Assembly: GCA_026415615.1 (NCBI GenBank) | Contig: JAOAGT010000001.1 | Location: forward strand, 421,455-485,454 | Reading direction: 5' to 3' | Length of the DNA: 64,000 nt | Source: Thermoleophilia bacterium | GTDB taxonomy: Bacteria; Actinomycetota; Thermoleophilia; RBG-16-64-13 | In this document: piece by piece, positions 16,829-62,890 of the stretch | Position numbering within the stretch: position 1 is the first letter of the stretch | How the letters are laid out: each line of letters begins with the position of its first letter | The notes under the pieces: model-generated | What the model was told of the DNA's origin: nothing | The model's database searches: none | Seen by the model: the letters and a program-made list of their open reading frames with translations, nothing else | Program-made: the position numbers and the translations under genes

Positions 16829-16831
16829 ACG

Positions 16832-18037: not shown

Positions 18038-18038
18038 C

Positions 18039-24280: not shown

Positions 24281-24294
24281 GAGAGGCGGGCAAC

Positions 24295-39933: not shown

Positions 39934-40332
39934 CTACCGCGCAATCATGACGGGGACCTTCGCGTATCTGAGGACTCGCTCCGAGGTCGAACCGAGCAGC
40001 AGATTCGCAAAAGTACCGCGGCCGCGGCTTCCCATGAGAATCAAATCGGCGTGGTGCTCTTCGGCGGCATCAAGAATCCCCTGTGCGGGCAATGCATCGG
40101 GTACCGCTACGAGAGTAGGGATGCCCAGCTTGGCAAGTCTGTCAACCAACGGATTTACCAATCGTCTTACTTCGCTTGGCTTTGAGGTCTGGGGCATGTG
40201 GCCAAAAGCGTGGCAGACGATGATGGTTGAGTCGAATTTCTCGGCCAGTGTGATAGCAAGAGCCGCAGCCTTTTCAGAGTCCTCCGACCCGTCGTATGCA
40301 AGCAGGATCCTACGGAAACCTTTTTCTTCCAT
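39934..40332 (-). CDS. Universal stress protein (UspA family)
   Basis: 132 aa, [15 protein letters not shown]...MGSRGRG...GSTSERV. Confidence 0.8.
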
Positions 40333-40391
40333 CGCCCCTCCAGCATGCCGAAACAGACATGCTCACTATAGCAGCAAGGTATACTTCCTAC

Positions 40392-41561
40392 ATGAGCCAG
40401 AATCAGAAGAATGAAACCACCGAACTCTACGGAACCGTCGCCATCCGGGAGAACCGGCTAGAGCGTTGGCCAAATCCCCAGCCGGAGAGGCCTTACCTCA
40501 TCTCGCTGGATATTCCGGAGTTTACCTGTCTTTGCCCGCGCTCGGGCTTTCCGGACTTTGCTTTGATCAAGATCCGCTACCAGCCCAAGGACTGGATAGT
40601 GGAGCTGAAGTCGCTCAAGCTCTACATCAACGGTTACCGCGATCGTCACATCTCCCACGAGGCGGCCGCTAACGAGATATTGAACGACCTCGTGGCCCTA
40701 CTTGAGCCCCGTTGGATGCGGGTTGTGGCGGATTTCAACGTGAGAGGCAACATAAAGACGGTGATACGGGTTGAGCACGGAGTTAGAGAGCGGGTGTCAA
40801 CGGAACCAAGCGCAGGAGAAAACCGTGGGGGGACTCAGTTCCAGGACAAAGACGCTAAGGGTGACCCCAAGGACGGCGTGGCGGACGGAGAGCCAATCGG
40901 CTTAACTCACTGCGTTCTTCTGAGCGGCGGACTTGATTCCACAACCCTTGTTGCCTGGGTCAAGAACCAACATCCTTCGGAACGCGTGGTGGCTTACACG
41001 TTTGTGTACGGACAAAAGCACGCGGTCGAAGTTGAGGCGGCTCAGTCGGTGGCCAACTATTACGGGATAGAGCATCATGTGGTGGAGATTCCGGTAATAC
41101 ACGGTTCTGCGCTCACCGAGCCACACATTCCTTTGCCAGAGGGGCGAGACCTTTCTAGGGTCTCGGGTGTGGCTCCCTCGTATGTGCCGGCTCGTAATCT
41201 TGTCTTTCTTGCACAGATGGCAGCTGTACAGGATGCCGTAGGGCCCGGGGTGCTATGGTTGGGCGTCCACTATGACGACCATACGGGATACCCGGACACT
41301 CGCCCGCAGTTCATCCAGGCGGTTGATCAAGCGGTGCGTCAAGGCACAAAGCATGCTCTAAGGGTGCAGGCGCCGTTTGTCACTTGGTCGAAGGCGCAGA
41401 TCATCCGCTGGGGTCTTGAGCACGGTGTGCCTTATGAACTCACTCATTCCTGCTACCAGGGCCTGCGTCCTGCGTGTGGGGTGTGTGACACCTGTCAAGC
41501 GAGGCTAAAGGCTTTCGCGGAAGCTGGTGCGCAGGATCCTATCCCTTACGCGGCAAGATGA
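40392..41561 (+). CDS. queF/queC: In-frame fusion: NADPH-dependent preQ0 reductase QueF (N-terminal) + 7-cyano-7-deazaguanine synthase QueC (C-terminal)
   Basis: The QueF part has catalytic [14 protein letters not shown] and the QueF motif ELKSLKLY. A Gly/Asp/Lys-rich linker of about 40 aa follows. The QueC part has the PP-loop [10 protein letters not shown] and the C-terminal Zn-site [16 protein letters not shown]. There is no stop between the two halves; start placed at the ATG at 40392. Confidence 0.75.
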
Positions 41562-42650: not shown

Positions 42651-43793
42651 TCACAGATCAAAGAAATCGCGGCCCTTCTCAAGCCATTCTGTGATGGACA
42701 GTCTTTTGGCGCAACGTTGTTCGCAGAGGCCGCAGGCGTTGCACAGTTCGGGGTGAATATCCTCCTGGGCCAACAAGAACTTTGCGGTTTCTTTGTCTCC
42801 GTAGATGACAGCGTCGTTGTAAATCTCAAAAAAGCGCGGCACGTCGATGCCCACGGGGCAGGGCATACACGGCCGGCAAGAAGGACATGGGACAAGTTGC
42901 CTATTGCGGTAAGCGTCCCGAACTGCCCCCAAGGTGACCTCGTCGGCGATGGTGAGGCTCTTACTATCTGCTTCGTCGGCGATCCTCATGTCTTCTTGTA
43001 GTTGCTCGCGGCTACTTGCGTCAACCACAGCTACGGCTACTTCTGGCTGGTTCCACACAAACCGCAGCGCCCATTCCACGGGAGACCAGTCTCTGCCGGA
43101 TTGCCTCCATATCTGTCCGATCAGGTCCGGTGGGTTGGCGGCTAGTTGGCCTCTCTTGAGAGGATCGGTTACCACTACGGCTAGGCCCTTAGAGGCCGCT
43201 AAACGTAGTCCTGTAAGACCAGGGTCGTGTCCGACGTCCATGAAACTAAACTGGAAGCTGGCCAAGGTCCACCGGTCATAGGCTTCAAGGATCCCGCGCA
43301 AAATCTGGTAATGATCATGAAAAGAAAAGCCAGAATAGGCAAAGAGCCCTGAACTCTGCGCCGTTTCCATTTGCTCGAGAATGCCCAACTCTTGCAGTCT
43401 AGGCCAATTCTCGCGGGTCAGGCGCCCAAGCAGACAAAAGTCCACGCTGTCTAGCTCGAGAACACGGAGTTGGTCTGTAAGAAAACGGAGTAGGTCATCT
43501 TTGTTCTGCAGCTTAGCAGCTGGAGCAGTGAGGGCAAGCCGCACTCTGTCTCGATAACCGTCTTTCAGCGCCTCGCGGATGACTTGGGCGACCGGCTCGT
43601 ACCAGGCCTGATTCCACGGAAATCCCAGGTCAACGTAATTGACGCCATTATCAATGGCGCCGCGGATCAGGGCGACTGCTGCCTCCTGATCCACTGTTCC
43701 CCAGCCGCTGTCTTGTCTGCCCGGAAGTCTCATGACTCCCAAGCCAAGTACCGAAGCTTCCCAGTTTAGTTTTCCAAAAACGCGATACTTCAT
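42651..43793 (-). CDS. Aldo/keto reductase fused to a C-terminal Fe-S (ferredoxin-like) domain (COG1453-type)
   Basis: AKR barrel N-terminus (VFGKLNWEASVLGLGVMRL) and C-terminal cysteine clusters CPSCRPCMPCP ... CNACGLCEQRC. Confidence 0.7.
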   Translation of the reverse strand: MKYRVFGKLNWEASVLGLGVMRLPGRQDSGWGTVDQEAAVALIRGAIDNGVNYVDLGFPWNQAWYEPVAQVIREALKDGYRDRVRLALTAPAAKLQNKDDLLRFLTDQLRVLELDSVDFCLLGRLTRENWPRLQELGILEQMETAQSSGLFAYSGFSFHDHYQILRGILEAYDRWTLASFQFSFMDVGHDPGLTGLRLAASKGLAVVVTDPLKRGQLAANPPDLIGQIWRQSGRDWSPVEWALRFVWNQPEVAVAVVDASSREQLQEDMRIADEADSKSLTIADEVTLGAVRDAYRNRQLVPCPSCRPCMPCPVGIDVPRFFEIYNDAVIYGDKETAKFLLAQEDIHPELCNACGLCEQRCAKRLSITEWLEKGRDFFDL

Positions 43794-43899: not shown

Positions 43900-44880
43900 C
43901 TAGCAGTCGTCCTCTTCCTCAACCTCGACCCACGGAGAGGCATGCTCGCCGCTTAGGCACACGACCGAAAAAGCGTAGCGCTTGTCTACCCACCGAGTGA
44001 TTAGCGGCAGATGCGGGAACCCCTCCGGGCACACAGCGATGGTGGGAGTATTAAACACGTGGCGCTCCCGCTCCTTGCCCATGCCAAGCTCGAGCTCTGC
44101 CCCGAGGTACTCTAGGTTGTCCGGATCGAGCCCCAGGTAGCAGAGAATCTCAGCCTCCGGATGCACGTGTACCTCCCCGCCGCGGTGCCACTTGCCGCAC
44201 TGGGTGTACGTGCCCCAGCTGAAGTTTACGTTAAAGCCTTCCAGGTTGTCACCGAAAAGCCAGACGATTTCGTCGCCGTTGCCCGGCCCGACGCCTTTCT
44301 CAGCCGGATGGAGAATGCCGTCTTCGTCCATAATGTCGGCGTAAGTAGGCCCTTGCACCTGTTCGTCGCCGCTCATACTCTTCATGATGCTCTCGGTAAT
44401 CTGGCAACGGAGCGGCTTGATCAGATGGGCATACTTGTCGCCTTTGGTGGGCTCCACAGCTGGAAGTGTTTCTGCTTTGTACTCGGGATCAAGGGCGACA
44501 ATAAAGTGGGCAATGGGCCTGTCCACCCAGTGCACAGTGGCTGGACCGTGGGGCAAGCCCTTCGGAACGCACACGACTGTGGGCTTATGGAAGGTGTGGA
44601 CCTCGCCCTCCGGGCCAAGCTGGATAGAAATCTCCGCCTCCATACGACGGATGTCGCCGTCCTGATAACCGGCAAAAACAATGCACTCGTCGTACGGATG
44701 TACGACCATGCCCTCGATGGGATGGAGGGTGCCGGGCTCCTTGATAAAGCCGTAGCAGAACTGAGCGTTAAAGCCCTCCATGTCCTTGCCTTCCATCCAG
44801 ATCAGCTTCTGGGGATAAAGGCCGGGGGGGCTTTCACGGACGATGCATTTCTTGATGAGATGCGCGTACTTCTTGGGCAC
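43900..44880 (-). CDS. Hypothetical bicupin protein (internal tandem duplication of a cupin-like module)
   Basis: The two halves align: KKYAHLIKK...MEGFNAQFCYGF...VHPYDECIVFAGY...HTFHKPTVVCVPKGLPHGPATVHW versus DKYAHLIKP...LEGFNVNFSWGT...VHPEAEILCYLG...HVFNTPTIAVCPEGFPHLPLITRW. Strong RBS AAGGAGGAAG. Confidence 0.6.
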   Translation of the reverse strand: MPKKYAHLIKKCIVRESPPGLYPQKLIWMEGKDMEGFNAQFCYGFIKEPGTLHPIEGMVVHPYDECIVFAGYQDGDIRRMEAEISIQLGPEGEVHTFHKPTVVCVPKGLPHGPATVHWVDRPIAHFIVALDPEYKAETLPAVEPTKGDKYAHLIKPLRCQITESIMKSMSGDEQVQGPTYADIMDEDGILHPAEKGVGPGNGDEIVWLFGDNLEGFNVNFSWGTYTQCGKWHRGGEVHVHPEAEILCYLGLDPDNLEYLGAELELGMGKERERHVFNTPTIAVCPEGFPHLPLITRWVDKRYAFSVVCLSGEHASPWVEVEEEDDC

Positions 44881-45117
44881 TTTACTTCCTCCTTCTCTTC
44901 CGGTCGGCGAGACACCGAAAACTCGGGCTATCCGTACAAGGACATATTAGACTCTATCAGATACCAGTCTTGTCAAGGGGTATGTTTTGACGAACGGCAA
45001 CCCTCAGTTATGCCTTTCAGCACGCAGTTTTGGCCGTGCTAGTAGGAATACTACTTAGCGACTGTGTTGCGACAACGTCAACTTTTTCCGGGCCCCCAAT
45101 CTTGCTGCTGTCTAGTC

Positions 45118-45146
45118 TTGACTTGGCCGCGACCGGCGTGATAACT
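45118..45146 (+). promoter_or_regulatory. Candidate sigma-70 promoter (TTGACT-N17-ATAACT) for the URO-D/ABC operon
   Basis: Counted directly from the sequence, about 50 nt upstream of the ATG at 45195. Confidence 0.3.
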
Positions 45147-45194
45147 CTATGCAGCCTGGAACTTCTATCAACGGCTGATCCGAGAAGGGAGAGG

Positions 45195-46445
45195 ATGTTT
45201 CTAGAACAGTCGCCCGCAGAGCTGTACGAAGAGCGGCGGAAACGTTTTGAGGCGGCGGTTCGCCTTGAGGTTCCGGACCGTGTGCCTCTGGAAATGCACT
45301 TCGGTTACTTCCCTGCTAAGTATTGCGGTATCCGTTACGACGCAGCCTACTACGACTACGACGCATGGCTTGCCGCCTGTAAGAAGACCTTGTTGGACTT
45401 TGGCGGCGATATGGTTGGAGTGCAGCCCTTCTTCCCCGGGCGAATTCTGGAGTTGGTCGACCCACGCGTGCTGCGTTGGCCTGGCCAAGGGGGCTCTCAG
45501 ATTCAGTCTCACCAGTTTATCGACGGGGAGTACATGAGGGAAAACGAGTACAGGCAGCTGCTCTCTGACCTTACTGGCTTTGTGCTCACCCGCTACATGC
45601 CGCGCATGTCTGGGGCGATGAGAGGCTTTGGCTGCGTTACGATGCTGCCCACGCCTGACATGGGTTACCGCTCTGTCATCCACCTGGCCGAGATTCTCAC
45701 CGATCCTGAGGTCGAGGCTTCTCTTGAGATTTTGCGCGAGATAGGCCGGGAGAGCAGGGCCTGGGGTCCCAAGTTAGTCGCTTTCGCTCAGGAGATTGAG
45801 GCTCTGGGCTTCCCGCCGTTTGCTGACAAATTTGCGCTGGCTCCGTATGACGTGATCGCCGATAATCTCCGCGGTATGCGGGGCACCATGATGGATCTTT
45901 ACAAGCATCCCGATGAGCTACTGGAGGCTTGCCAGGCTTTGCTCAAGGTTATGCTTGACCATATCGGGATGCCGGTGGAGGGAGCCATTAATCGCGTGAG
46001 CATACCGCTTCACTTCGGGTCTGAAGGTTTCTGCTCGCTTAAGCAGTTTGAGACGTTCTACTGGCCTACACTGCGAGATCTAGTGGTGGAGCTTGTGCGA
46101 CGTGGCTTCACGCCGTTGGTGATGACGGAGGGCGACTACACTTCCCGCCTTGAGTACCTTCTAGAGCTGCCCAAGGGCAAGGTTTTTGTGCATTTTGACG
46201 CAACGGACATGTTCAAGGCCAAAGACGTACTGGGGGGACATCTGTGTATCAGCGGCAACGTCCCGCTAACTCTGCTTGCGGCTGGTTCTCCCGAGGAAGT
46301 CCGGGAGTACGCCAAGCAACTGATCGACTACTGCGGGCGAGATGGGGGATTTGTAATGTCCCCACGGACCCCTGTGGACGACGCCAAGCCCGAAAACGTC
46401 AAAGCGTTGATAGACTTTACTATCGAATACGGGGTATACCGGTAG
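45195..46445 (+). CDS. Uroporphyrinogen-decarboxylase (URO-D) family protein (MtaA/CmuA-like fold), function unknown
   Basis: 416 aa from the ATG at 45195 (MFLEQSPAELYEERRKRFEAA...). URO-D-family C-terminal half (GFTPLVMTEGDYTSRLEYL...HLCISGNVP...GGFVMSP). The upstream 55 codons in the track are hydrophobic read-through. Confidence 0.6.
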   Translation: MFLEQSPAELYEERRKRFEAAVRLEVPDRVPLEMHFGYFPAKYCGIRYDAAYYDYDAWLAACKKTLLDFGGDMVGVQPFFPGRILELVDPRVLRWPGQGGSQIQSHQFIDGEYMRENEYRQLLSDLTGFVLTRYMPRMSGAMRGFGCVTMLPTPDMGYRSVIHLAEILTDPEVEASLEILREIGRESRAWGPKLVAFAQEIEALGFPPFADKFALAPYDVIADNLRGMRGTMMDLYKHPDELLEACQALLKVMLDHIGMPVEGAINRVSIPLHFGSEGFCSLKQFETFYWPTLRDLVVELVRRGFTPLVMTEGDYTSRLEYLLELPKGKVFVHFDATDMFKAKDVLGGHLCISGNVPLTLLAAGSPEEVREYAKQLIDYCGRDGGFVMSPRTPVDDAKPENVKALIDFTIEYGVYR

Positions 46446-46521
46446 GTGCCGTCAACTCTAGTGATACTCAAAGTTTCAACACGCGCCGTGGCTGTAGTGC
46501 CTGCAAGGTGAGAGGGCGGGG

Positions 46522-47481
46522 ATGATAACTTACATAATCCGACGATTGCTCTGGCTGATTGTAGTAGTGTTCCTAGTCTCCGTGATCGTGTTCTTCTCCA
46601 TCCGGCTGCTTCCTGGGGACCCGGTGCTCATTTACGCCGCGCAGCTTCAGTCGGGAGGAAGCATCACTCAGGAGCAGCTAGAAAAACTGCGAGTGGAACA
46701 CGGCCTGGACAAACCGGTTATTGTCCAGTTCGCAAACTGGCTGGGGGGCATCTTTAAGGGAAATCTGGGCAAGTCAATTCGCTACCATGACGATGTGGGC
46801 AAGCTCCTAGCCCAGAAGTACCCCGTGACCATATACCTCGGCATTGTGTCGATGATCGTGGCTACGCTGTTTGGCATCTTCTTCGGGCTGATGGCCGCGA
46901 TTCGCCGAGGAACGTGGATAGACTCTGTGGTGACCGTACTGTCGTATATCGGACTTTGCATCCCGGTATTCCTGCTAGCCTTTGCATTGATCTACGTCTT
47001 TGCTCTTAAGCTGGATTTGCTCCCGATTGTGGGATATACGCATCCGTGGGTTAACTACTGGACCAGTGTGAAGCAGTCCATCATGCCCGTTATTTGCCTG
47101 GCGGTTACTCCAATGGCTGTAACAGCCAGGCAGATGAGATCGAGCGTGCTCGAAGTCGCCAATATGGACTACATACGGACCGCGTGGTCAAAGGGTCTTC
47201 GGGAAAGACTGGTGGTAACGAGACATATTCTCAAGAACAGCCTAATCCCGGTGATCACGTCGGTTGGTATTGGCGTCGGTCTGATCTTTGGTGGATCAGT
47301 CATCATCGAAAGCATCTTCGCAATTCCCGGCGTGGGTCAACTTCTGGTAAACAGCATCTTTGCTCGTGACTACGTGGTAATCCAGAGCGGGACTCTGGTG
47401 GTGGCTTTCGCGGTGATCTTGGTCAATCTCATCGTGGACATTTCGTACGGCTGGCTCGATCCGAGGATACGCTATGAGTGA
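46522..47481 (+). CDS. ABC transporter permease (OppB/DppB family)
   Basis: N-terminal YIIRRLLWLIVVVF and an EAA-loop region (DYIRTAWSKGLRERLVV). Confidence 0.85.
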   Translation: MITYIIRRLLWLIVVVFLVSVIVFFSIRLLPGDPVLIYAAQLQSGGSITQEQLEKLRVEHGLDKPVIVQFANWLGGIFKGNLGKSIRYHDDVGKLLAQKYPVTIYLGIVSMIVATLFGIFFGLMAAIRRGTWIDSVVTVLSYIGLCIPVFLLAFALIYVFALKLDLLPIVGYTHPWVNYWTSVKQSIMPVICLAVTPMAVTARQMRSSVLEVANMDYIRTAWSKGLRERLVVTRHILKNSLIPVITSVGIGVGLIFGGSVIIESIFAIPGVGQLLVNSIFARDYVVIQSGTLVVAFAVILVNLIVDISYGWLDPRIRYE

Positions 47482-48373
47482 GATCTCAACTACAGCTCAG
47501 GGACTACAATCCATCGAAGCTCCCCACGTCAGTGAGTGGAAACGCTTCCTGCGCGTGTTCTTCCAGCGCAAGTTGGTGGTGCTGGGTGTTGTGGTGCTCG
47601 TGATCTGGGTCGTTGTGGCGATTTTTGCTCCCTGGATTGCCCCTCATGACCCCTACAAGAACAACATGTCCATGGCGCTTAAACCGCCCAGCGCCGAGTA
47701 TCCACTTGGCACTGATAGCCTAGGACGATGTGCGCTTAGCCGTCTCATTTACGGAACGAGGACGGCTTTGTACGTGGGCTTTGGGACGGTGGTTGTGTCG
47801 GCCATCGCTGGCATGATTCTCGGCTTGCTGGCTGGTTACATAGGTGGGGCCGTCAACACCGTGATCATGCGGGTCATGGACGCTCTAATGGGATTCCCCA
47901 TGTTGGTGTTGGCCTTGCTGTTGGCCTCAGTGTTGGGAGGGGGCCTTCACAACGTGATAATCGCCCTGGCAATTGCAACCGTGCCTGGTTATACCCGTCT
48001 TATGTGCGCGCAGACTCTGAGCGTAAAAGAAAACGAATACATCATGGCGGCTCGGGCGGTTGGCTCTAAAAGCTTTAGAACAATGATTCGCCATGTTTTC
48101 CCGAATGCGTTCCAGCCGCTCTTGGTGATGATCACCACAATGCTGGGAAGCGTCATCCTGGCGGAAGCAGGTCTTAGCTTTATAGGAATCGGTATACAGC
48201 CGCCAGGCGCAGCATGGGGGAGCATGGCTGCAGATGGCTACCGCTATCTAGAATCATATCCTCTGCTTTCGTTTGCTCCGTCTCTAGCCATCATGATCGT
48301 GGTGTTTGCTCTCAACATGGTGGGCGACGGGTTGCGTGACGCACTTGATCCAAGGCTTCGGGGGACGCTGTGA
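47474..48373 (+). CDS. ABC transporter permease (OppC/DppC family)
   Basis: Six-TM permease with an EAA loop (ENEYIMAARAVGSKSFRTM). Confidence 0.85.
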   Translation: MSEISTTAQGLQSIEAPHVSEWKRFLRVFFQRKLVVLGVVVLVIWVVVAIFAPWIAPHDPYKNNMSMALKPPSAEYPLGTDSLGRCALSRLIYGTRTALYVGFGTVVVSAIAGMILGLLAGYIGGAVNTVIMRVMDALMGFPMLVLALLLASVLGGGLHNVIIALAIATVPGYTRLMCAQTLSVKENEYIMAARAVGSKSFRTMIRHVFPNAFQPLLVMITTMLGSVILAEAGLSFIGIGIQPPGAAWGSMAADGYRYLESYPLLSFAPSLAIMIVVFALNMVGDGLRDALDPRLRGTL

Positions 48374-49416
48374 CAACGACGGTTACAACCACATTAGAGC
48401 AAGCTGGGTGCGAGCGTGATCTTGGGATCAAGGAAGAGCTGCTCCAGGTCAAAAACTTGGTGACGGAGTTCCGCACCGAGGGAGGCATTGTCAAGGCTGT
48501 TAACGGTGTCTCCTATCACGTGGACACCCACGAGATCGTGGGTATGGTGGGTGAAAGCGGCTGCGGTAAGACGGTCTCTCAGCTCTCAGTACTCCAGTTG
48601 ATTAGAAATCCCGGCAGAATTGTGGGGGGCGAAGTTTGGTTTGAAGGCCGGAACCTCCTGGCGTACAAGCCTAACAGCCCTGAGATGCGGGCGGTCCGCG
48701 GGGCCAAGATAGGCATGATTTTCCAAGAGCCCATGACTTCGCTTAACCCCACGATGACCATCGGTCGTCAGTTGATGGAGGGTTTGGAGCTTCACCTGGG
48801 CATGAGTAAGCGGGAAGCTCGCGAGCGGGCGATCGAGCTTCTTCAGCTGGTGGGAATTCCTAGTCCAGAAAGCCGCCTGGAGGACTACCCGCATCAGTTC
48901 AGTGGAGGCATGCGCCAGCGGGTCATGATAGCCATTGGAGTGTCGTGCAATCCCAAATTGGTGATTGCAGATGAGCCCACCACTTCATTGGATGTTACTA
49001 CTCAGGCCCAGCTGCTTGAGCTCATGCTCAAGGTGATTGAGGAAGTCAAAGGCTCGCTTGTGTTGGTGACGCACAACCTAGGCGTTGTAGCTCGCTACGC
49101 GCAGCGCATCTACATCATGTACGCGGGCAAGATTGTGGAAGAAGGTACTTGTCGTGACATTTTCTACCGGCCCAGCCATCCGTACACATTAGGTTTGCTT
49201 AAGAGCGTACCAAGACTGGACGAGAGCCCGGGTAGACGTCTGGTGCCCATCGAGGGCAAGCCGCCGGATTTGATCAACTTGCCTCCAACATGTGCGTTCT
49301 TGCCGCGCTGTCCAGAGGCGGGCGAGCGGTGTCGGCAGGAGCCGTGGCCCGAGCTTGTCGAGGTGGACGGCGCTGGCCATCGGGTACGTTGCTATATGCG
49401 CGGCAAGGGGGCGTAG
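48370..49416 (+). CDS. ABC transporter ATP-binding protein (OppD/DppD family)
   Basis: Walker A GESGCGKT, signature FSGGMRQR, and a C-terminal oligopeptide-ABC Cys-rich extension. Confidence 0.85.
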
Positions 49417-49418
49417 AG

Positions 49419-50492
49419 ATGGCAGAAGTGCAGGAAAAGCAGGTTCTTGCCGAGAAGCCGGTCAGCTCTACTAGCGATACCGGCTCCACTAACAACCTCC
49501 TCCTCGAGGTGGACTCGCTTAAGATGTACTTCCCCATCCGGCGAGGCCTCCTCAAGCGGAAAGTGGGAGAGGTAAAGGCTGTAGACGGAGTCTCCTTCAC
49601 TATGAAGCGGGGCGAGACTCTTGGTCTGGTGGGTGAAAGCGGGTGCGGCAAGACCACTGTGGGGCGGTGCATAAGCCGTCTTTACACTCCTACCGGCGGG
49701 CGGATTATGTTTGACCACATAGACATTTCGTCTATGTCGGAAAAAGAATTCTGGCCTTTGCGTCGCCGGATCTCGGTGATCTTCCAGGATCCCTACGGGT
49801 CGCTGGATCCTCGGCAAACGGCGGGGAGCATTGTGGGCGAACCGCTTAAGGTGCACAAGCTGGTCAAAGATAAAAAGGAGTACTTCGAGCGCGTAGAGCA
49901 GCTCTTCGTAAAAGTTGGCCTAGACCCAAAGCTAATGTCGCGCTACCCCCACGAGTTCAGCGGTGGTCAGCGCCAACGCATAGGCATTGCTCGGGCGCTA
50001 GCGGCTGATCCCAGCCTGATCATCTGCGACGAACCTGTATCTGCGCTCGACGTATCTATTCAAGCCCAGATCATCAACCTCCTGATGGATCTTAAGGAGG
50101 GCATATCAGGGCTGAGCTACATTTTCATCGCCCACGATCTTTCTGTGGTCAAGCATTTCAGCGACCGCATTGCGGTCATGTACCTAGGAAGAATTGTCGA
50201 GATAACCACGCCCACCGAGCTTTACAGCAATCCTCTGCATCCATACACCCAAGCGCTGTTGTCGGCGGTGTGCGTGCCTGACCCGGATGTAGAGGCGACT
50301 CGGGAACGAATAGTTTTGGAGGGTGAAGTGCCAAGCCCGGTTAATCCTCCTTCGGGTTGCACCTTCCATCCTCGTTGTCCTTATGCGTTGCCAGAATGCA
50401 GCAAAACCATTCCTCAGCTTGAAGAGATTGAACAGGATCATCAGGTAGCCTGCTTGGTGGTCAGCAGGAAAGAGGGTGAAAAACGTGGGTGA
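49419..50492 (+). CDS. ABC transporter ATP-binding protein (OppF/DppF family)
   Basis: Start at the ATG at 49419 (MAEVQEK...). Walker A GESGCGKT, signature FSGGQRQR. Confidence 0.85.
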
Positions 50493-51507
50493 GTATCTCA
50501 AGGGAAAAGTTGTTGTGGTGACTGGGTCCGGTCGCGGGATCGGTCGGGCTATCGCCATTGGCATGGCGGCCGAGGGTGCCAAAGTGGTCACCAACAGTCG
50601 CAAGCCCGGCTCTACCGGGACGGCGCTCCTGAGCGAGCGGCACCTGGCAGCGTTAAGTCCAGAAGATCGCGCTCGTGTGGAGCAAGAGCTTGAGGCGCTT
50701 ACCGGCGACGCCGAAACCACGGCGGAGGCTATCCGCAAGGCAGGAGGCGAGGCGGTTGCGTTTTTTGGCGATATTTCTGACTTTAAAGTGGCGGGAGAGC
50801 TTATTAAGACCGCTGTGGACACCTTTGGGGGTGTCGACGTGCTGGTTAATGTGGCGGGCACCTTTGGCTTTTCCCCAATTTGGGAGCTTTCCGAAGAGCT
50901 ATGGGACAAGGTTACGCGGGTAAAACCAAAGGGCTACTTCAACACTATCCGCCACGCTGTGCCCTACATGATGGAGAAACGCTGGGGCCGGATTCTCAAC
51001 TGCACTTCGCGGGCTTTCTTTGGTGATACTTTAAGACATGCTGAGTACTGCGCCGCAAATGCCGGGGTTGTGGGGCTGACCCGAGCAGTGGCTATTGAGC
51101 TTTTCCCTTACGGAATCACCTGCAACGCTTTCTCTCCTTGGGCCTATACGCGGGCTTCCGTTGAGCTTGAGGCGCATGAACTCGCCGCTTCTCCGGAGGA
51201 AAGAGCCTGGGTGGACGAGGGGTTCAATTTTCCGGCCTCTATTACTCCGGGGCCTGAATACGTGGTTCCCTTCCTTGTCTTCCTGGCCAGTGACGCTGCG
51301 GCTGACGTGAGTGGTTCGATATTTGAGATGGGTGGCAACCGCATCGCTCTATACTCCGAGCCCAAAACCGCGCACACGATGTACAAGCAGGACCCGGCGC
51401 CGTGGACCGTAGATGAAATAGTTCAGCATGCTCGCATGGGAATCCTAGCTGGGTATCAGACGTCGGTAGCGGTCAAGCCGCCCAGAAGCAGCGGCGAGTC
51501 AAGCTGA
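50476..51507 (+). CDS. SDR-family oxidoreductase (long form, 343 aa)
   Basis: [18 protein letters not shown] Rossmann motif. GTG start overlapping the preceding ATPase gene. Confidence 0.75.
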
Positions 51508-51633
51508 CCTTGTTTTCTGGGGGTAGTACTTCGAGTCTGAGCTAGGCTCTTTGGATTTTCTTGTGAGAAACACCGAGCCCAGAGTTGGGTTCAACGCTTC
51601 GGTCTGTGAAGTTTTGGGCGTAAGGAGTGAGCC

Positions 51634-52299
51634 ATGAACGTGATTGAGGCCATCCGGGCAAGAAAATCTGTAAGAGCTTTCCGGCCAGATCCCATACCCA
51701 AAGAGACCCTGCTTGCCATTCTTGAGGCTGCCAACTGGTCGCCCTCTTGGGCCGATACGCAGCCCTGGGAAGTTTATGTGGCTGCGGGTGAGGTTGTTGA
51801 GCGGATTCGAAAGCGGTTCCTTGAGCGTTACGAGGCAGGCGTACCCCCAGCCAACGACATTCCGCGCCCGACTGACTGGCCCTCTGGGCCAAAGCAGCGG
51901 ATGCTTGACTTCATTGCCGCTCGGGCGGCGGCTCTAGGCTTTGTTCCTGGCGACGAAGAGGAGCGTGCCCGGAGTATGCGCCGCAATTTTGAGTTTTTTG
52001 GCGCCCCGGTGGTGGTTTATCTCTGCCTACATAAGGATCTTTCCCCGTGGTCTTACTTTGATCTCGGGCTATATGCGCAAAGTGTGATGCTCGCAGCTTT
52101 AGAGCACTCCGTAGGCTCGGTGGTGGCGGTCAACCTAGCCGCGTATCCGGACATTCTCCGGGAGGAGCTGGGCATCCCGGATGAATACGCTGTCATGATA
52201 GGAATTGCTCTCGGCTACGAAGACCCCGATGCCGAAGTCAACAAGGTACGAAGCATCCGACGGCCTGTCGAGCAGGCAGTGACTTTCAAAGGTATCTAG
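51634..52299 (+). CDS. Nitroreductase-family protein
   Basis: ARKSVRAFRPDPIPKETLLAILEAANWSPSWADTQPW. AAGGAG RBS. Confidence 0.8.
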   Translation: MNVIEAIRARKSVRAFRPDPIPKETLLAILEAANWSPSWADTQPWEVYVAAGEVVERIRKRFLERYEAGVPPANDIPRPTDWPSGPKQRMLDFIAARAAALGFVPGDEEERARSMRRNFEFFGAPVVVYLCLHKDLSPWSYFDLGLYAQSVMLAALEHSVGSVVAVNLAAYPDILREELGIPDEYAVMIGIALGYEDPDAEVNKVRSIRRPVEQAVTFKGI

Positions 52300-52604
52300 C
52301 AGATCTCGCAAGCTTTTGAGCAAGAAGGTTGTGACTGGAACCTTCAGAGGATCACAAGCTACGAGCACAAACCTAGGGAAAACACGTGGGAGGTGGTGCA
52401 CTGGAACAAGGGGGAACAGGCTTTGGCGTTGCTTCGCGATTAGGGCGCATTAGTCTGCGTATATCTAGAGACGCACCTGTATAGACTGACACACATTGTC
52501 TAGATAACTTCTTGCGCAGAGTGGCTAAGGCTTGTATAGTGAGGCTCAAGATTTCTCAGGCTCAGCCTTGGCGTATATGTGCGCACAAAGTGGGAGGAGC
52601 TGAA

Positions 52605-53066
52605 TTGGAAAAGCTGGAGAAATCGCCCTACAGAAAGTATTTTCGCATCGGCGAAGAGATCAAGATTCCGTCCCATCCGCATGAGCATGAAGTACCCAGC
52701 CCCGCAATCTTTTTGGTTGGCACAGACGTAAAAGAGAGCAAGGGTTTCCGCATCGCGACTTTTGCTATTACTCAGCCTTTCACAATGGTCCACGAGACCC
52801 ATACTCACGACTTCGACCAGTATTTGTCTTTTTTTGGCGGGGACATGCGCAACATGCTGGACCTCGGCGGAGAGGTTGAGTTCACTATAGGCGACCCCGA
52901 CGGGGAGCTTGAGACCTTTGTGTTTACAGTGCCGTTTATGGTCCACATACCGCCGGGAGTCCGCCACTGTCCGCTTCGGTACACCAAGGTGTACGACCCA
53001 GCTAAGCCAATCATCCACCAGGACCTGGTCTTCACGGGAGAGTACATTCGCAAGCCTTCTTCTTAG
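52605..53066 (+). CDS. Single-cupin protein, paralog of the bicupin at 43900..44880
   Basis: Shares the module ...FVFTVPFMVHIPPGVRHCPLRY with the bicupin halves. Start set at the TTG at 52605, preceded by GGGAGGAG; the track ORF starts at 52512. Confidence 0.5.
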   Translation: MEKLEKSPYRKYFRIGEEIKIPSHPHEHEVPSPAIFLVGTDVKESKGFRIATFAITQPFTMVHETHTHDFDQYLSFFGGDMRNMLDLGGEVEFTIGDPDGELETFVFTVPFMVHIPPGVRHCPLRYTKVYDPAKPIIHQDLVFTGEYIRKPSS

Positions 53067-53210
53067 ACAGGGGCTGAAGCAAAGGGGGTGAGAACGGAAA
53101 TAACGACATAGGCGACTTGGAGCTTTCGTACACGAGGCGCGAAACAGGCGTCTCGCCTGGCGAAAGACAACAAGGAAGTACGATCGCAGACTCAGAACGG
53201 GGGTAAAAGA

Positions 53211-54863
53211 GTGAGGAGGAAGACAGCAAAAGCAGCGTGGCTTGTTGGGATCATTCTTCTGGTCGGGCTGCTCACGGTTTTGGTAGCTGCCTGCGGCGAG
53301 GAAGAGACTACAACTACCACCGCGGCTCCTGCTACTACTGCCACCACTAGTGGGGGGACAACTGAGACCACTGCCGCCGAAAGCACCACCACAAGCGCTG
53401 CTGGCCCGCAGCCAGTTTATGGTGGCGTTTTGCGTCTCATTCACAACTCACCAGCTCAGGTTCTAGGCTACTGGCCCGAGCAAGGTCCTGTAGATGAGGC
53501 CGCGGTGTTCCCCGGTGTGGAGCGCATCATGCGGTTTGCGCCGGGCCGCACGTTGGTGCCTGACCTGGCAAAAGAGGTCACGGAGGATCCTGATGGTTTG
53601 ACCATCACGGTCAAGCTCAATGAGGGCATTCTCTTCCACGATGGTACCGAGCTGACGGCAGAGGTAGCCAAGTGGAACTACGACCTGGCAGCTCCTACTG
53701 GGAAGCTCCAGTTCGCAGATGCCATCAAAGAGTTTGAGATTGTTGATAAGTACACTTATGTCCTGCACCTGAACTACTGGCACAACCAGTTGCTGCAGTC
53801 GCTGGCCTGGGTGCCCATGTATTCCAAGGAAGCCTACGAGAAGAATGGCGGCCAGGAGTGGGCTCGGACTCACTGCGTAGGTACGGGTCCGTTCATTCTC
53901 AAGGAGTTCAACCGTGACCAGAATATGATCTGGGAAAAGAACCCCAACTACTGGCGCAAGGGCCAGCCCTACCTGGACGGTGTCGAAGTCACCTACATCA
54001 TGGACTCCACTACTGCTGCGGCTATGATGGAGGCGGGACAGGCTGACATTTGGCAGTCGGCAAACGCCCAGGAGCGGTCCGAGATGCTCAAGAAGGGCTT
54101 CAAGGTGCAGTCTGGATGGGCTGGTTTCCAGTTCCACCTGATGCCGAACACCAAGGATCCGAACTCGCCGTTCAAGGATCAGAGAGTGCGCGAAGCGGTG
54201 GAGTATGCGCTTGACAAGCCGGCCATCTGCGAGGCCATCGGTTACGGTTTCTACGAACCCATCTACGCTGTTTCTCCTCCGGGCGAGTGGGGTAGTGATC
54301 GTATCGTGGTCAAGCGTGAGTACAATCCCGAAAAGGCTAAGCAGCTCTTGGCCGAGGCTGGCTATGGTAACGGGCTTGCCATCGACCTGCTTGCTCCGAT
54401 CGAAGCTGGTGGCCGCAACACTGGGGCCGAGGCGGTCAAGGGATACTTGGATGCTGCCGGTTTCATTACCAACATCGACATTGCTGATCCGGGTCGGTTC
54501 TACGGATCGGTGTTTGGAACCGGTTGGAAGGACCTTGCTCTCATGTTCAGCGGCAACGACGTGACTTATCTCATGTCTGCCTGCGCTTGGTGGGGTCCGC
54601 AGCCCAAGACCAACCTGGCCAGCTTCGAGCGTCCTGAAGAGTTCAAGGCTCTGTTTGATAAAGCTCTCATGGCTCGCGATCTCAAGGAGCAGGAGAAGCT
54701 AACTGGCGACATTGTTGCTTACATGAACGAGCACGCTCTCATGATCCCGTTGTTCCATTACCCAGCGGCTATCGTGTGCCAGAACTACGTGCACACCGAG
54801 TACCCGATGGAGGGTGGCTTTGTGCGCTGGTCCTGGAACGAGACGTGGATGGAGGCTCACTGA
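53211..54863 (+). CDS. ABC transporter substrate-binding lipoprotein, family 5 (OppA/DppA/NikA-like)
   Basis: Lipobox LVAAC, Thr-rich linker GEEETTTTTAAPATTATTSGGTTETTAAESTTTSAAG, then the SBP_bac_5 fold. GTG start. Confidence 0.8.
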   Translation: MRRKTAKAAWLVGIILLVGLLTVLVAACGEEETTTTTAAPATTATTSGGTTETTAAESTTTSAAGPQPVYGGVLRLIHNSPAQVLGYWPEQGPVDEAAVFPGVERIMRFAPGRTLVPDLAKEVTEDPDGLTITVKLNEGILFHDGTELTAEVAKWNYDLAAPTGKLQFADAIKEFEIVDKYTYVLHLNYWHNQLLQSLAWVPMYSKEAYEKNGGQEWARTHCVGTGPFILKEFNRDQNMIWEKNPNYWRKGQPYLDGVEVTYIMDSTTAAAMMEAGQADIWQSANAQERSEMLKKGFKVQSGWAGFQFHLMPNTKDPNSPFKDQRVREAVEYALDKPAICEAIGYGFYEPIYAVSPPGEWGSDRIVVKREYNPEKAKQLLAEAGYGNGLAIDLLAPIEAGGRNTGAEAVKGYLDAAGFITNIDIADPGRFYGSVFGTGWKDLALMFSGNDVTYLMSACAWWGPQPKTNLASFERPEEFKALFDKALMARDLKEQEKLTGDIVAYMNEHALMIPLFHYPAAIVCQNYVHTEYPMEGGFVRWSWNETWMEAH

Positions 54864-54927: not shown

Positions 54928-54967
54928 GGCCCGGCCCGCCCCAGCGGCGGGCCGGGCCCTTTTGTTC
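54928..54967 (+). terminator. Rho-independent terminator after the SBP gene
   Basis: GGCCCGGCCCGCC-ccagc-GGCGGGCCGGGCC followed by CTTTTGTT. Confidence 0.8.
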
Positions 54968-58411: not shown

Positions 58412-59257
58412 TTGAAGGGGGGAAAGCCTCATACAGAGGCAAGCGAGGATCCGATTATTCGGATCGACGATATCTCGCTTAGCTTCGGTGGTGTTAACGC
58501 GCTTTCGAGCGTAAGCCTCGATGTTCGCAGAAATGAAATCCTGGCCATTATCGGGCCCAACGGGGCCGGCAAGACCGCTCTTCTGAACTGCATTACCGGT
58601 TTCTACAAACCACAAAAGGGCGAGATCTACTTTGAAGGACACAAGATCACTCGGCAGCGGCCGGACAAGCTGGCCAAGTTAGGCATCGCCCGCACGTTCC
58701 AAAACATCGAGCTTTACACCGGTCTTACGACGCAGGACAACCTCATGGCCGCTCGGCACGTTTTCATGAAGCAGACCTTCGTTGACGGCGCAGTCTATTT
58801 TGGGCGTTCCCGCAAAGAGGAGCTAAAGCACCGGCAAAGAGTGGAAGAGATCATTGATTTCCTTGAGATGCAGTCCATCCGCAAACAGATAGTGGGCTCG
58901 CTGCCTTATGGACTGCGCAAGCGAGTGGAGCTCGGCCGGGCTTTGGCTTTGGAGCCCAAGGTCCTGCTCTTGGACGAGCCGATGGCGGGCATGAACCTCG
59001 AAGAAAAAGAAGACATCGCCCGTTTTATTCTCGACGTGTACGAGGGCCAGGGTGACACCTATCCGGACAATCCGGTTCTTAGAGATGGGGTGCGGAGCAT
59101 AATCCTGGTGGAGCATGACATGGGCGTAGTCATGGACCTCGCCGAGCGCATCGCGGTGCTCAACTTCGGTCGCAAGATCGCAGAAGGCACTCCGGCTGAG
59201 GTGAGGTCCGATCCGTTGGTCATCGAGGCATATCTGGGTCAAGGGACAGGTCTATAG
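58412..59257 (+). CDS. livG: Branched-chain amino acid-type ABC transporter ATP-binding protein LivG
   Basis: TTG start. Walker A GPNGAGKT and a LivG-type N-terminus (ISLSFGGVNALSSVSLDV). The signature region is present. Confidence 0.8.
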   Translation: MKGGKPHTEASEDPIIRIDDISLSFGGVNALSSVSLDVRRNEILAIIGPNGAGKTALLNCITGFYKPQKGEIYFEGHKITRQRPDKLAKLGIARTFQNIELYTGLTTQDNLMAARHVFMKQTFVDGAVYFGRSRKEELKHRQRVEEIIDFLEMQSIRKQIVGSLPYGLRKRVELGRALALEPKVLLLDEPMAGMNLEEKEDIARFILDVYEGQGDTYPDNPVLRDGVRSIILVEHDMGVVMDLAERIAVLNFGRKIAEGTPAEVRSDPLVIEAYLGQGTGL

Positions 59258-60051
59258 TGCTCGAGGTTAGAAACATCGAAGTTGCCTATCTGGGCGTAAT
59301 CAGGGTTCTCCACGGAGTCTCTCTTCAGGTAGGGCCTGGACAGGTGGTTGCTCTCCTGGGGGCAAACGGAGCGGGCAAGACCACTACTCTTAAGGCGATT
59401 TCTGGGTTGCTCAAAGTCGAGCAAGGCCAGATCACAAGCGGCGAGATTTACCTAGAAGGCAAGAGGATCGATCACCTCGGTCCCGAGGACATCGCCGCTC
59501 TGGGTATCAGCCAAGTGATGGAAGGTAGGCGAGTCCTCGAGCACTTGACTGTCGAGGAAAACCTGTTGGTGGGAGCCTACCGGCGCCGCGACCGCGCAGC
59601 CGTGAAGAGGGATCTGGAGATGGTATACGACTACTTCCCGCGGCTGCGTGAATACCGCAAGCGCGTAAGCGGCTACTTGTCCGGCGGGGAGCAGCAGATG
59701 ATGGTTATCGGCCGGGCGCTGATGGCGGATCCCCGGCTTATGCTGCTCGATGAGCCCTCGCTAGGTTTGGCCCCATTGGCGGTGGCCGAGATCTACAAGA
59801 TCGTGGAGCGAATCAGCCGGGAGCGCGGCGTTTCCCTACTAATTGTGGAGCAGAACGTGAAGGCTGCCTTGGGGGTAGCCAGTTACGGCTACGTTATGGA
59901 AAACGGGCGCATCGTGCTAGATGGGCCCGCCGACAAACTCAAGGATAACGAGGACGTGAAGGAATTCTACATGGGGATTTCCTCCAGCGGCACTCGCAAG
60001 AGCTACCGCGAGATCAAGCATTACCGGCGGCGCAAGAGGTGGTTGGCGTGA
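59257..60051 (+). CDS. livF: Branched-chain amino acid-type ABC transporter ATP-binding protein LivF
   Basis: Walker A GANGAGKTT, signature LSGGEQQM. Confidence 0.8.
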   Translation: MLEVRNIEVAYLGVIRVLHGVSLQVGPGQVVALLGANGAGKTTTLKAISGLLKVEQGQITSGEIYLEGKRIDHLGPEDIAALGISQVMEGRRVLEHLTVEENLLVGAYRRRDRAAVKRDLEMVYDYFPRLREYRKRVSGYLSGGEQQMMVIGRALMADPRLMLLDEPSLGLAPLAVAEIYKIVERISRERGVSLLIVEQNVKAALGVASYGYVMENGRIVLDGPADKLKDNEDVKEFYMGISSSGTRKSYREIKHYRRRKRWLA

Positions 60052-62000: not shown

Positions 62001-62887
62001 CGTTTTTCTTCCAATTGGTTATTAGCGGTCTTTCCCTGGGCATGATGTACGCCCTGATCGGAGTGGGCTTTGTAGTCATTTTCAAATGCTCCAAGGCTTT
62101 CAACATCGCCGCCGGGCAAATTGTGATGTTGGGGGCATACGTCGGCTACACCTTCCTTAAGCCCTGCGGCCTACCAGTGTGGCTGGCCATTATTCTCTCG
62201 ATCGCGGTGGCCATCATTCTCGGCCTTGTGGTGGAACGGCTTGCCCTCAGGCCGCTCTTGGGGCAGCCGGCGCTTGCCATCGTTATGATGACCATCGCCC
62301 TTGCCGGCGTCATGGACGGGGTGGCCATCGTGGGATGGGGCGGCGAGTACGTCACCTATCACGACTCTCTTCCGGCGGTGACGCTGCATCTCGGGTCGGT
62401 GTCGGTGCCTCCGTCTTCGGTGCTTGCCCTGATCGTGTCTGTGGTGGTAGTGGCGGCCCTGCTCTTTGTGTTTCGGTTTACCAAGATCGGACTTGCCATG
62501 CGGGCTACCGCCGAGGACGAACAGGTGACCCGCAGTCTTGGCATACGGGCCACCATGGTGTACGCGCTTTCGTGGGTCATTGCCAGTGTGGTCGGGGTGG
62601 TGGCCGGAGTTCTGTTGGGCGGGGTTTCGGGAGTATCGCCACCGCTTGCCGATGTGGGCTTGAAAGCGCTTGCTGTGGTTATTTTGGGCGGTCTTGATTC
62701 AGTCGGAGGAGCCGTGGTGGCGGGCGTCATTCTTGGCATCGCAGAGAACTTGGCCGCTGGCTATCTGGATTCCTTACTCCCGTCCGGTGGCGGCCTTGCC
62801 AACGTTTTCCCCTTCATCGTGATGTTGCTTGTGCTGATCTTTAAGCCGCACGGCTTGTTCGGGCTAAAGACCATCGAGAGGGTGTAG
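61997..62887 (+). CDS. livH: ABC permease LivH family
   Basis: 296-aa polytopic permease. Stop/start overlap with the ligase gene. Confidence 0.8.
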   Translation: MTFFFQLVISGLSLGMMYALIGVGFVVIFKCSKAFNIAAGQIVMLGAYVGYTFLKPCGLPVWLAIILSIAVAIILGLVVERLALRPLLGQPALAIVMMTIALAGVMDGVAIVGWGGEYVTYHDSLPAVTLHLGSVSVPPSSVLALIVSVVVVAALLFVFRFTKIGLAMRATAEDEQVTRSLGIRATMVYALSWVIASVVGVVAGVLLGGVSGVSPPLADVGLKALAVVILGGLDSVGGAVVAGVILGIAENLAAGYLDSLLPSGGGLANVFPFIVMLLVLIFKPHGLFGLKTIERV

Positions 62888-62890
62888 ACG

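Follow-up and report, generated by a model that had tools for sequence, protein, structure and literature searches.

A modular bicupin gene cluster with an Opp-type importer and a corrinoid methyltransferase homologue in a Thermoleophilia bacterium

Type-I methyltransferases move a methyl group from their substrate onto the cobalt of a corrinoid protein. Among those of the URO-D superfamily are the O-demethylases MtvB, OdmB, VdmB and MtoB, beside which the chloromethane:corrinoid methyltransferase CdmB has been placed, in company with many clades that have no assigned substrate; the characterised relatives of the CdmB clade are either O-demethylases of methoxylated aromatics or haloalkane methyltransferases (PMC13222342). 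In the described corrinoid methyltransferase systems the transporters reported as partners are of the major facilitator superfamily (MFS), not Opp-type ATP-binding cassette (ABC) importers (PMC8359953). Here we analyse a window of 64,000 nucleotides (the whole stretch of DNA under study: positions 421,455 to 485,454 of contig JAOAGT010000001.1, assembly GCA_026415615.1, Thermoleophilia bacterium; coordinates below are those of the window) in which a homologue of CdmB leads an Opp-type importer operon that also encodes a short-chain dehydrogenase/reductase (SDR), a nitroreductase and a small cupin, and in which a divergent minus-strand unit encodes a two-domain cupin (bicupin) and an aldo/keto reductase (AKR)-like protein with a ferredoxin domain (AKR-FeS). 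The described corrinoid systems are not coupled to cupins, SDRs or AKR-FeS proteins, whereas this cluster is. Comparison with related loci suggests a cluster of modular make-up, of which this locus is one version; its carriers are uncultured bacteria from lineages commonly taken to be anaerobes.

The first gene of the plus-strand operon (45195..46445) encodes a 416-aa protein of the URO-D superfamily (PF01208, 56.7 bits; domain calls here and below are from Pfam and NCBIfam profiles, the latter judged against their curated cut-offs). It belongs to the same length class (∼415-445 aa) as the methyltransferases of the MtvABC, OdmABCD, VdmB, MtoABCD and CdmBCA systems, and its closest solved relative is CdmB of Acetobacterium (9rui, E = 6e-41); true uroporphyrinogen decarboxylases do no better than E = 5.5e-4 and align through the C-terminal half alone. 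The hemE equivalog model TIGR01464 gives 21.5 bits against a cut-off of 302.95, which places the protein outside HemE, and the models of MtaA/MtbA-type second methyltransferases (MT2) give 26.7 bits against 400 (NF040654) and 19.5 against 235.4 (TIGR01463), which places it outside that group also. It thus has both the fold of the type-I corrinoid methyltransferases (MT1) and a position nearer to them than to decarboxylases or MtaA, and from its sequence it is most likely a substrate:corrinoid methyltransferase, neither a decarboxylase nor of the MtaA type. The initial annotation of this stretch, made by inspection of the sequence, had raised the idea of an MtaA-like corrinoid partner; the corrinoid part of that idea has gained ground from the match to CdmB and from corrinoid proteins in the related loci L056 and L172, and the assignment to the MtaA type has fallen away. 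Since identity to CdmB is only ∼30%, the specificity of that enzyme is not transferable.

Corrinoid proteins do occur with equivalents of this gene. One homologue (56% identical) comes from a canonical cluster in which six URO-D paralogues are accompanied by a B12-binding corrinoid protein, RACo and a Pterin_bind methyltransferase; a second (59%) stands among Opp-type importers and a nitroreductase-ferredoxin fusion; and another, again 56% identical and found independently (L088), adjoins four small cupins of the family described below together with an AKR-FeS gene. The corrinoid protein encoded within L056, between a cupin gene and that of the solute-binding protein (SBP), is 58.7% identical to the one in the canonical cluster. 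In L172 two URO-D paralogues both match CdmB at ∼1e-41 and URO-D identity to the window protein is ∼38%, and a Bathyarchaeia bicupin of the wider family adjoins a corrinoid protein and two URO-D genes. The homologues and equivalent clusters thus resemble the O-demethylase and CdmBCA systems in having a B12-binding corrinoid protein and, once, RACo and a pterin-binding MT2 as well, whereas the window differs from those systems in having no corrinoid protein, MT2 or activator. The window does contain a cobamide nucleotide-loop/salvage cluster (13626-19007, plus strand) encoding a CobC-like phosphatase, CobU, CobT (DBI_PRT, 454 bits), CobS, a CobD-like aminotransferase and CbiB, which shows corrinoid use and makes corrinoid enzymes plausible in this organism. 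A specific link between the bicupin and cobamide salvage was also considered, CobD, CobS and CobU lying a few kb upstream of the bicupin in six to eight Chloroflexi loci, and was set aside, since we judge the arrangement to be synteny that closely related genomes share, and GYD and SpoU genes, which are unrelated, intervene.

The importer has all five components of an Opp/Dpp/Nik (PepT-family) system with their diagnostic domains. The permeases are of the OppB/NikB type (46522..47481; BPD_transp_1 with the OppB N-terminus, BPD_transp_1_N; Opp2B 307.8 bits, cut-off 350) and the OppC/NikC type (47474..48373; OppC_N and BPD_transp_1; Opp1C 294.5 bits, cut-off 350), the ATPases, each with ABC_tran and oligo_HPY domains, of the OppD/DppD type (48370..49416; DppD 349.6 bits, cut-off 541) and the OppF/DppF type (49419..50492; OppF 418.6 bits, cut-off 540), and the family-5 SBP (53211..54863; SBP_bac_5 242.7 bits) is a lipoprotein with a lipobox (LVAAC) and a Thr-rich linker. 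It differs from such importers in its gene order, the SBP gene being last instead of first and the methyltransferase homologue leading the operon. All components stay below every curated equivalog cut-off (peptide, dipeptide, glutathione, nickel, opine or microcin), so that no ligand can be assigned; the SBP scores 123 bits against a cut-off of 594 for GsiB and 121 against 393 for NikA, and its nearest solved relatives, all at E≥5e-32, bind varied ligands (YliB/GsiB, HbpA, AgaA, AppA and NikA). The C-termini of OppD and OppF (49250-49416 and 50380-50470) carry four-cysteine motifs, C-x5-C-x6-C...C, a pattern that can bind an iron-sulphur (Fe-S) cluster in some Opp ATPases.

Further uptake systems are encoded in the window. 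A TRAP transporter at 23609-26878 (plus strand), with small and large membrane parts and DctP, has a DctP whose lipobox and Thr-rich linker match those of the family-5 SBP. A Liv-type ABC operon at 58412-63928 (plus strand) includes a 653-aa AMP-binding (acyl-CoA ligase-like) gene between its ATPase and permease genes, and L056 likewise has an AMP-binding gene and a Liv-type system directly after the SBP.

Two oxidoreductases are encoded between the importer ATPases and the small cupin. The first is a long SDR (50476..51507; 343 aa; adh_short 133.7 bits) with an insertion after the second beta strand, closest among solved proteins to the MFE-2-type (3R)-hydroxyacyl-CoA dehydrogenase 2et6 (E = 2.4e-50). 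Homologues with 61-70% identity are present in 12 of the 81 non-redundant bicupin loci compared here, and in seven of these a small cupin detected by BLAST starts less than 400 bp away. The second, a 221-aa flavoprotein of the nitroreductase family (51634..52299; PF00881, 105.5 bits), is nearest to NfnB-type nitroreductases (E = 3e-31) and is a lineage-specific accessory, orthologues of at least 50% identity being confined to the relatives L007 and L056. The domains named in the initial annotation (URO-D, importer, SDR, nitroreductase and family-5 SBP) are thus all borne out by Pfam and NCBIfam.

The two cupins are members of the cupin superfamily that belong to no curated subfamily. The bicupin (43900..44880, minus strand; 326 aa) and the single-domain 'type A' cupin (52605..53066, plus strand; 153 aa) have no Pfam or NCBIfam match at E≤0.01, nor the trimmed small cupin at E≤0.1; neither reaches the cut-off of any curated cupin subfamily (Cupin_2, KduI, pirin, OxdC-type, gentisate dioxygenase and others), so that the profile search proposed at the outset matched no model to either protein, and phmmer with the bicupin against the PDB returned nothing relevant. 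The internal duplication of the bicupin noted initially is clear, its halves aligning at E = 5e-24 (32% identity over 113 aa), and the suggested paralogy of the two proteins is far beyond chance: the small cupin aligns to the two halves at E = 3e-8 and 2e-6 (BLASTP), and a profile built from small cupins of other genomes matches them at 7e-14 and 5e-13. AlphaFold2 models, another of the checks initially proposed, are confident for both proteins, with predicted local distance difference test scores (pLDDT) of 89.8 (bicupin) and 85.7 (small cupin); the small beta-barrel typical of cupins is present in both.

The first cupin motif of the family is H-x-H-D-(F/Y)-D-(Q/E), and the V-P-x-G-x-x-H-x-P-L pattern that had been noticed by eye is its conserved second motif; in the small cupin the two read HxHDFDQ and IPxGxxHCPL. 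Within the second, P116, H121 and P123 are invariant, a different alignment adding C122 and L124. Putative metal ligands, all invariant or nearly so, are H66-x-H68-x3-Q72 with P116-x-G-x-x-H121 in the small cupin, H238-x-H240-x3-E244 with P-x-G-x-x-H290 in the bicupin C-domain, and in the N-domain a variant with unusual spacing of the first motif, H53-x7-H61-x3-E65 with H111, so that each domain has a predicted His/His/Glu-or-Gln/His metal site. Each cupin unit also has its own N-terminal K-Y-x-x-(L/Y)-(I/V) segment. The structurally nearest bicupins, OxdC, quercetinase YxaG, pirins and the BacB/AerE isomerases, likewise fold as two cupin domains, each with His-rich metal motifs, but identity to them is only 7-14%, and the H-x7-H-x3-E spacing of the N-domain and the N-terminal segments set the new family apart.

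Homologues of the bicupin are 54-77% identical across phyla, and the family is compact, with 887 clusters at 50% identity among 1.84 billion representatives, 55 of them at E≤1e-30; there is also a wider branch of ∼290-aa bicupins. The small cupin is 50% identical to a Moorellales protein that adjoins an SDR, a LysR regulator and a bicupin. Some genomes have several bicupin copies, including one delta-proteobacterial metagenome-assembled genome (MAG) with three loci (L012, L072 and L083) and tandem pairs in Dehalococcoidales (L019/L172), and with bicupins and type-A and type-B small cupins there can be up to six cupin domains per locus. The window version has no type-B small cupin; its position in L007 and L056 corresponds to the 306-bp gap between the nitroreductase and cupin genes (52300-52604), and neither tblastn nor blastn finds a remnant in 52250-52700 or elsewhere in the 64-kb window. 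The initial suggestion that the cupins might be dioxygenases now seems unlikely, because the carrier lineages are generally regarded as anaerobes and the loci lie among oxygen-sensitive Fe-S and corrinoid components; the chemistry of OxdC and quercetinase, which needs oxygen, is likewise unlikely in such hosts.

Following the bicupin gene on the minus strand is the AKR-FeS gene (42651..43793; 380 aa), which fell outside the span first annotated. Its product has an Aldo_ket_red match of 66.3 bits and a C-terminal two-cluster 4Fe-4S ferredoxin domain, with matches to Fer4_9 and Fer4_8 below their cut-offs and two CxxCxxCxxxC motifs that are conserved in the family. A barrel followed by two such motifs is also the layout of the AKRs fused to a ferredoxin domain (COG1453-type), from which this subfamily is distinguished by an altered catalytic tetrad and by its place directly after a bicupin gene. 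Aligned to PDB 5dan, the tetrad D-Y-K-H reads D-W-T-G, with three of four residues replaced, and these positions are not conserved across 61 AKR-FeS homologues; the protein thus lies outside the classical aldo/keto reductases, and hydride transfer of the classical type is unlikely, even though the best solved relative is a 2,5-diketo-D-gluconate reductase. It is 43% identical to the product of the gene after the bicupin in a Chloroflexi MAG, and a homologue is present in 71 of the 81 bicupin loci; of the 64 that have enough sequence, 55 have it after the bicupin on the same strand, at a distance of less than 2.6 kb. We infer that the AKR-FeS protein is the electron-transfer partner of the bicupin.

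A pattern scan with one genome per species yielded 80 bicupin loci, all in MAGs, among which Dehalococcoidales dominate; the remainder include Thermoleophilia/Gaiellales, Acidobacteriota, Desulfobacteraceae, Moorellales, other Bacillota and one Bathyarchaeia. Genes for the URO-D protein, OppBCDF, SDR, small cupin(s), bicupin and SBP recur jointly in the Thermoleophilia/Gaiellales loci L007, L056 and L080 and in the Dehalococcoidales locus L172, with partial gene sets in L025 (Desulfobacteraceae). That the genes form a functional unit, as first proposed, gains weight from this recurrence; the boundary drawn was wrong, in that it left out the AKR-FeS gene. In the orthologous cluster L056 (Gaiellales) an IclR gene is followed on one strand by URO-D, OppBCDF, SDR, nitroreductase, cupin, bicupin, AKR-FeS, two further cupins, corrinoid protein and SBP genes, whose products are 58-79% identical to those of the window (37% for AKR-FeS). 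The order in L172, also seen on a metagenome contig, is corrinoid protein, URO-D, URO-D, SBP, OppBCDF, SDR, cupin A, cupin B, MatE and MarR (these two on the other strand), bicupin, bicupin and AKR. Moorellales loci L004/L030 have SDR, cupin, LysR and bicupin in that order, and in five loci TRAP transporters take the place of the Opp system beside the bicupin. In Dehalococcoidales a recurrent set of opposite-strand genes follows the cluster (L172 16094-18972, L019 13185-17121), encoding an MFS transporter, DUF169, a NifX/NifB-like (Nitro_FeMo-Co) protein and a CoA-binding protein, and in L019 two HGD-D (2-hydroxyacyl-CoA dehydratase/benzoyl-CoA reductase-like) genes follow too.

Where at least 8 kb of flank is available on both sides (33 loci), a small cupin paralogue is present in 20, an Opp permease in 11, the SDR in eight and a URO-D gene in five, the last count being an underestimate because the Dehalococcoidales URO-D genes lie beyond the 10-kb flank. 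In L009, glgP directly adjoins the bicupin-AKR pair with nothing in between, so that the 10-kb plus-strand operon of the window represents an insertion or deletion relative to L009. The bicupin-AKR pair is the ancestral core and the operon a variable add-on, and the cluster is built of modules: bicupin with AKR-FeS, SDR with small cupin(s), the importer, and lineage-specific extras (URO-D, nitroreductase, regulators and efflux pumps). The window version differs from its relatives in having neither the type-B small cupin, present in L007 and L056, nor a corrinoid protein. The linkage between the two strands is real nonetheless, because the operon encodes a bicupin paralogue, the pair lies inside the operon in L056 and L080, and in Dehalococcoidales all form a single block.

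Taken as a whole, the cluster may serve to import a methylated small organic molecule, demethylate it, and change the product by redox and isomerase steps without oxygen, a general model that we advance tentatively and hold at a little less than an even chance. Homology assigns import to the family-5 lipoprotein and the OppBCDF-type system, and the product of the operon's first gene to the type-I class that transfers a substrate methyl group to a corrinoid protein; the other proteins are by homology an NAD(P)-dependent SDR of the MFE-2 branch, an NfnB-like flavoprotein, cupins of the metal type and an Fe-S protein. The corrinoid protein, the second methyltransferase and the reductive activator are presumably encoded elsewhere in the genome. 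The demethylated product might then be worked on by the metal-dependent cupins, single and fused, which are probably oxygen-independent isomerases, tautomerases or lyases, with reducing power supplied by the NADPH-type SDR, the flavin nitroreductase and the AKR-FeS protein. The order of these steps, the part given to the cupins and electron delivery by AKR-FeS are inferences.

The weakest step of the model is the nature of the substrate, for which methoxylated aromatics derived from lignin or humus seem the most likely class, a plausible choice with circumstantial support. It is suggested by the relatives of the methyltransferase clade, by the regulators (MarR, IclR and LysR) and transporters (MatE/MFS or TRAP) of other versions, by the lack of any sugar-catabolic gene among the recurrent neighbours of the 81 loci, by the habitats that MAG sample or isolate names imply (SPRUCE, a peat; AnMBR, a bioreactor; RBG; MFD; Kamch), and by Sporobacter termitidis, the only cultured carrier found, which is described as growing solely on methoxylated aromatics, with O-demethylation and ring cleavage. 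A bolder proposal, that the cupins and the tetrad-less AKR-FeS protein constitute a new oxygen-independent metalloenzyme system acting on the phenolic products of corrinoid-dependent O-demethylation, is rather unlikely to hold in that full form. If true, it would give uncultured members of the Dehalococcoidia, Bathyarchaeia, Thermoleophilia and related groups a ring-transforming step with which to use lignin-derived methoxylated aromatics in anoxic soils and sediments.

Several observations weigh against importation and demethylation of such a compound. No enzymatic activity is on record for any member of the cupin family or the AKR-FeS subfamily, and the Sporobacter protein is a single and distant case (43% identity over part of the query). 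The known ligands of Opp-type importers and of the nearest solved SBPs are peptides, glutathione, opines, nickel and haem, with no aromatics among them, and the SBPs of other cluster versions are just 24-32% identical to that of the window, so that the substrate may differ between lineages. As remarked in the initial annotation, there is no corrinoid protein, nor is RACo or a pterin methyltransferase detectable anywhere in the 64-kb window, and tblastn and blastn find no trace of a decayed corrinoid-protein gene in 52250-52700 or elsewhere in it. These genomes may hold many URO-D paralogues (the single L087 cluster has six and L086 three), in which case some of the adjacency could be due to chance. 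Most loci have the bicupin-AKR pair with no importer or URO-D gene nearby, an Opp-type importer being found within 10 kb in about a third of the well-flanked loci, and the close relatives L009-L011 have no plus-strand operon. Within the pair itself, a G+C-rich hairpin with seven G-C pairs (43852-43833) lies in the 106-bp gap between the bicupin and AKR-FeS genes, where it may attenuate read-through from one to the other.

Some of these same observations would be expected if two unrelated units simply stand side by side, the bicupin and AKR-FeS being a stand-alone redox or stress module (for example for quinone or electrophile detoxification) and the plus-strand operon an ordinary peptide or oligopeptide importer with passengers. 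We think this unlikely, but it is the strongest of the alternatives. The pair occurs without an importer in about two-thirds of well-flanked loci, L009-L011 do without the operon altogether, and transcription in the window is divergent. Nitroreductases, SDRs, AKRs, MarR regulators and efflux pumps are common in electrophile-stress regulons, and in Dehalococcoidales rubrerythrin/ferritin-like, ODP-family and flavin-reductase-rubredoxin genes recur nearby. However, one of the operon's own products is a bicupin paralogue, L056 and L080 have the pair within the operon and in its orientation, the Dehalococcoidales have importer, SDR, two small cupins, two bicupins, AKR-FeS, corrinoid protein and URO-D genes in a single block, and uptake genes are ill-suited to detoxification.

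Uptake of a metal or metallophore (nickel or cobalt), or of glutathione or peptides, is a less probable explanation still, with cupins that bind metal or act as chaperones and a URO-D protein acting on a tetrapyrrole. The NCBIfam models that fit the permeases best are of nickel or nickel/cobalt types (Opp2B and Opp1C as above, and NikC at 282.8 bits), GsiB and NikA give the SBP nearly equal scores, canonical metal-binding motifs are present in the cupins, and cobamide genes lie 25 kb away in the window and beside the bicupin in several Chloroflexi; yet all of those scores fall under their curated cut-offs, the match of the URO-D protein to methyltransferases is stronger by 37 orders of magnitude than that to decarboxylases, and the strong conservation of the bicupin and its linkage to SDR, Fe-S protein and TRAP or MFS transporters suit enzymes better than chaperones. 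Equally improbable, to our minds, is a corrinoid-independent scheme in which the URO-D protein, as a cofactor-free decarboxylase, acts on a carboxylated compound taken up by the cell and the pathway is completed by the cupins and reductases. Such a role would account for the want of corrinoid protein, activator and second methyltransferase in the window, decarboxylation being the original activity of the URO-D fold, and carboxylate-taking TRAP transporters do replace the Opp system in five loci. Against this stand the hemE score of 21.5 bits where 303 are called for, the alignment to real decarboxylases through the C-terminal half alone at E≥5.5e-4, and the corrinoid proteins embedded in equivalent clusters. 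Least probable, and rejected here, is a sugar-acid pathway analogous to the KdgF (cupin), KduI (bicupin) and KduD (SDR) uronate module with an Opp-type sugar importer as in thermophiles: the composition fits (small cupin, bicupin, SDR, and importer or TRAP transporter) and the AKR has a sugar-acid reductase as its best solved relative, but the likeness in folds beside a transporter is architectural only, there being no KduI, KdgF or KduD family match (KduD 111 bits, cut-off 339), no glycoside hydrolase, 2-keto-3-deoxygluconate (KDG) kinase or aldolase among the recurrent neighbours in the 81 loci, no catalytic tetrad in the AKR domain, and no place in such a pathway for corrinoid and URO-D genes.

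On the preferred reading, of import, demethylation and oxygen-independent conversion, the importer and the methyltransferase fall into known classes, and it is the cupin family and the AKR-FeS subfamily that lie outside current profile libraries. We found neither the family nor the gene cluster described in the literature on bicupins and Dehalococcoidia, on COG1453, on cupins with O-demethylases or on Bathyarchaeia cupins, and no functionally characterised member of the AKR-FeS subfamily in the literature on COG1453. Nor did the methyltransferase or other literature searched mention the coupling of an Opp-type importer with a corrinoid methyltransferase, or the pairing of a bicupin with an altered AKR-ferredoxin. 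Both arrangements, the second with its constant pairing of a bicupin and a catalytically altered fusion of AKR and ferredoxin, would be new even if the substrate is not aromatic. How anaerobes deal with methoxylated lignin fragments is not settled outside the acetogens and some methanogens; work on lignin-enriched Bathyarchaeia reports a genome without known ring-cleavage genes and describes the steps after O-demethylation as unknown there (PMC10989822). The cluster provides concrete candidate genes, located beside demethylase-type methyltransferases and corrinoid proteins in several abundant uncultured lineages, and, as an arrangement shared by at least two bacterial phyla, it is a candidate pathway for the anoxic use of methylated, possibly lignin-derived, compounds.

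Every gene named in the initial annotation is present at or very near the coordinates given there, and transcription is in two divergent units, the minus-strand one comprising bicupin and AKR-FeS and the plus-strand one extending from the URO-D gene to the SBP gene. The probable starts are ATG 45195 for the URO-D gene, ATG 49419 for OppF, and TTG 52605 for the small cupin, the last with a GGGAGGAG ribosome-binding site upstream and giving 153 aa instead of the 184 aa of the open reading frame from 52512, in agreement with the 146-153 aa of its homologues. From the URO-D gene to the SDR gene the spacing is 77 bp or the genes overlap, and the gaps separating SDR, nitroreductase, cupin and SBP are 127, 306 and 145 bp. 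As the reading as an operon implies, no strong terminator interrupts the plus unit, in which there is a weak hairpin 3′ of the SDR gene and a sole strong, intrinsic-terminator-like hairpin after the SBP gene at its end (54928..54958, plus strand; 13 G-C pairs and a T run, CTTTTGTT). The divergent intergenic region (44881..45194) has promoter-like sites for both units, which are consensus matches only: TTGATA-16-TAGAGT on the minus strand (45171-45144) and, on the plus strand, TTGACT at 45118-45123 followed by GATAAC; a TCTTGACT block of this region is kept in the relative L007. An Rfam scan of 42-56 kb at a permissive threshold gave a match at chance level only (E = 0.7) and no riboswitch in the 306-bp or 314-bp intergenic regions, and an intergenic repeat search found no clear operator, only inverted repeats that are short and weak and a single direct repeat of 21 nt (52386-52406 and 52590-52610), which copies the ribosome-binding site and start region of the cupin gene.

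The locus had been called an island; because base composition is uniform (GC 0.54-0.58 across the locus, with uniform skew), foreign origin is not shown and we have dropped the term as a compositional claim, yet the locus does differ from L009 by a real insertion or deletion. Housekeeping genes flank it, with an alpha-glucan phosphorylase on one side and a fused queF-queC, queD and queE on the other. The fusion (40296-41561, plus strand), which is an unusual one of queuosine-precursor enzymes, encodes 421 aa with QueF-like residues 86-163 and QueC at 206-410, and QueD and QueE come next. At the left end of the window (370-13189, minus strand) there is a large chemotaxis cluster encoding CheB, CheR, a methyl-accepting chemotaxis protein (MCP), CheW, CheA and CheY, together with an 884-aa HEAT-repeat protein and a PAS/histidine-kinase/receiver hybrid.

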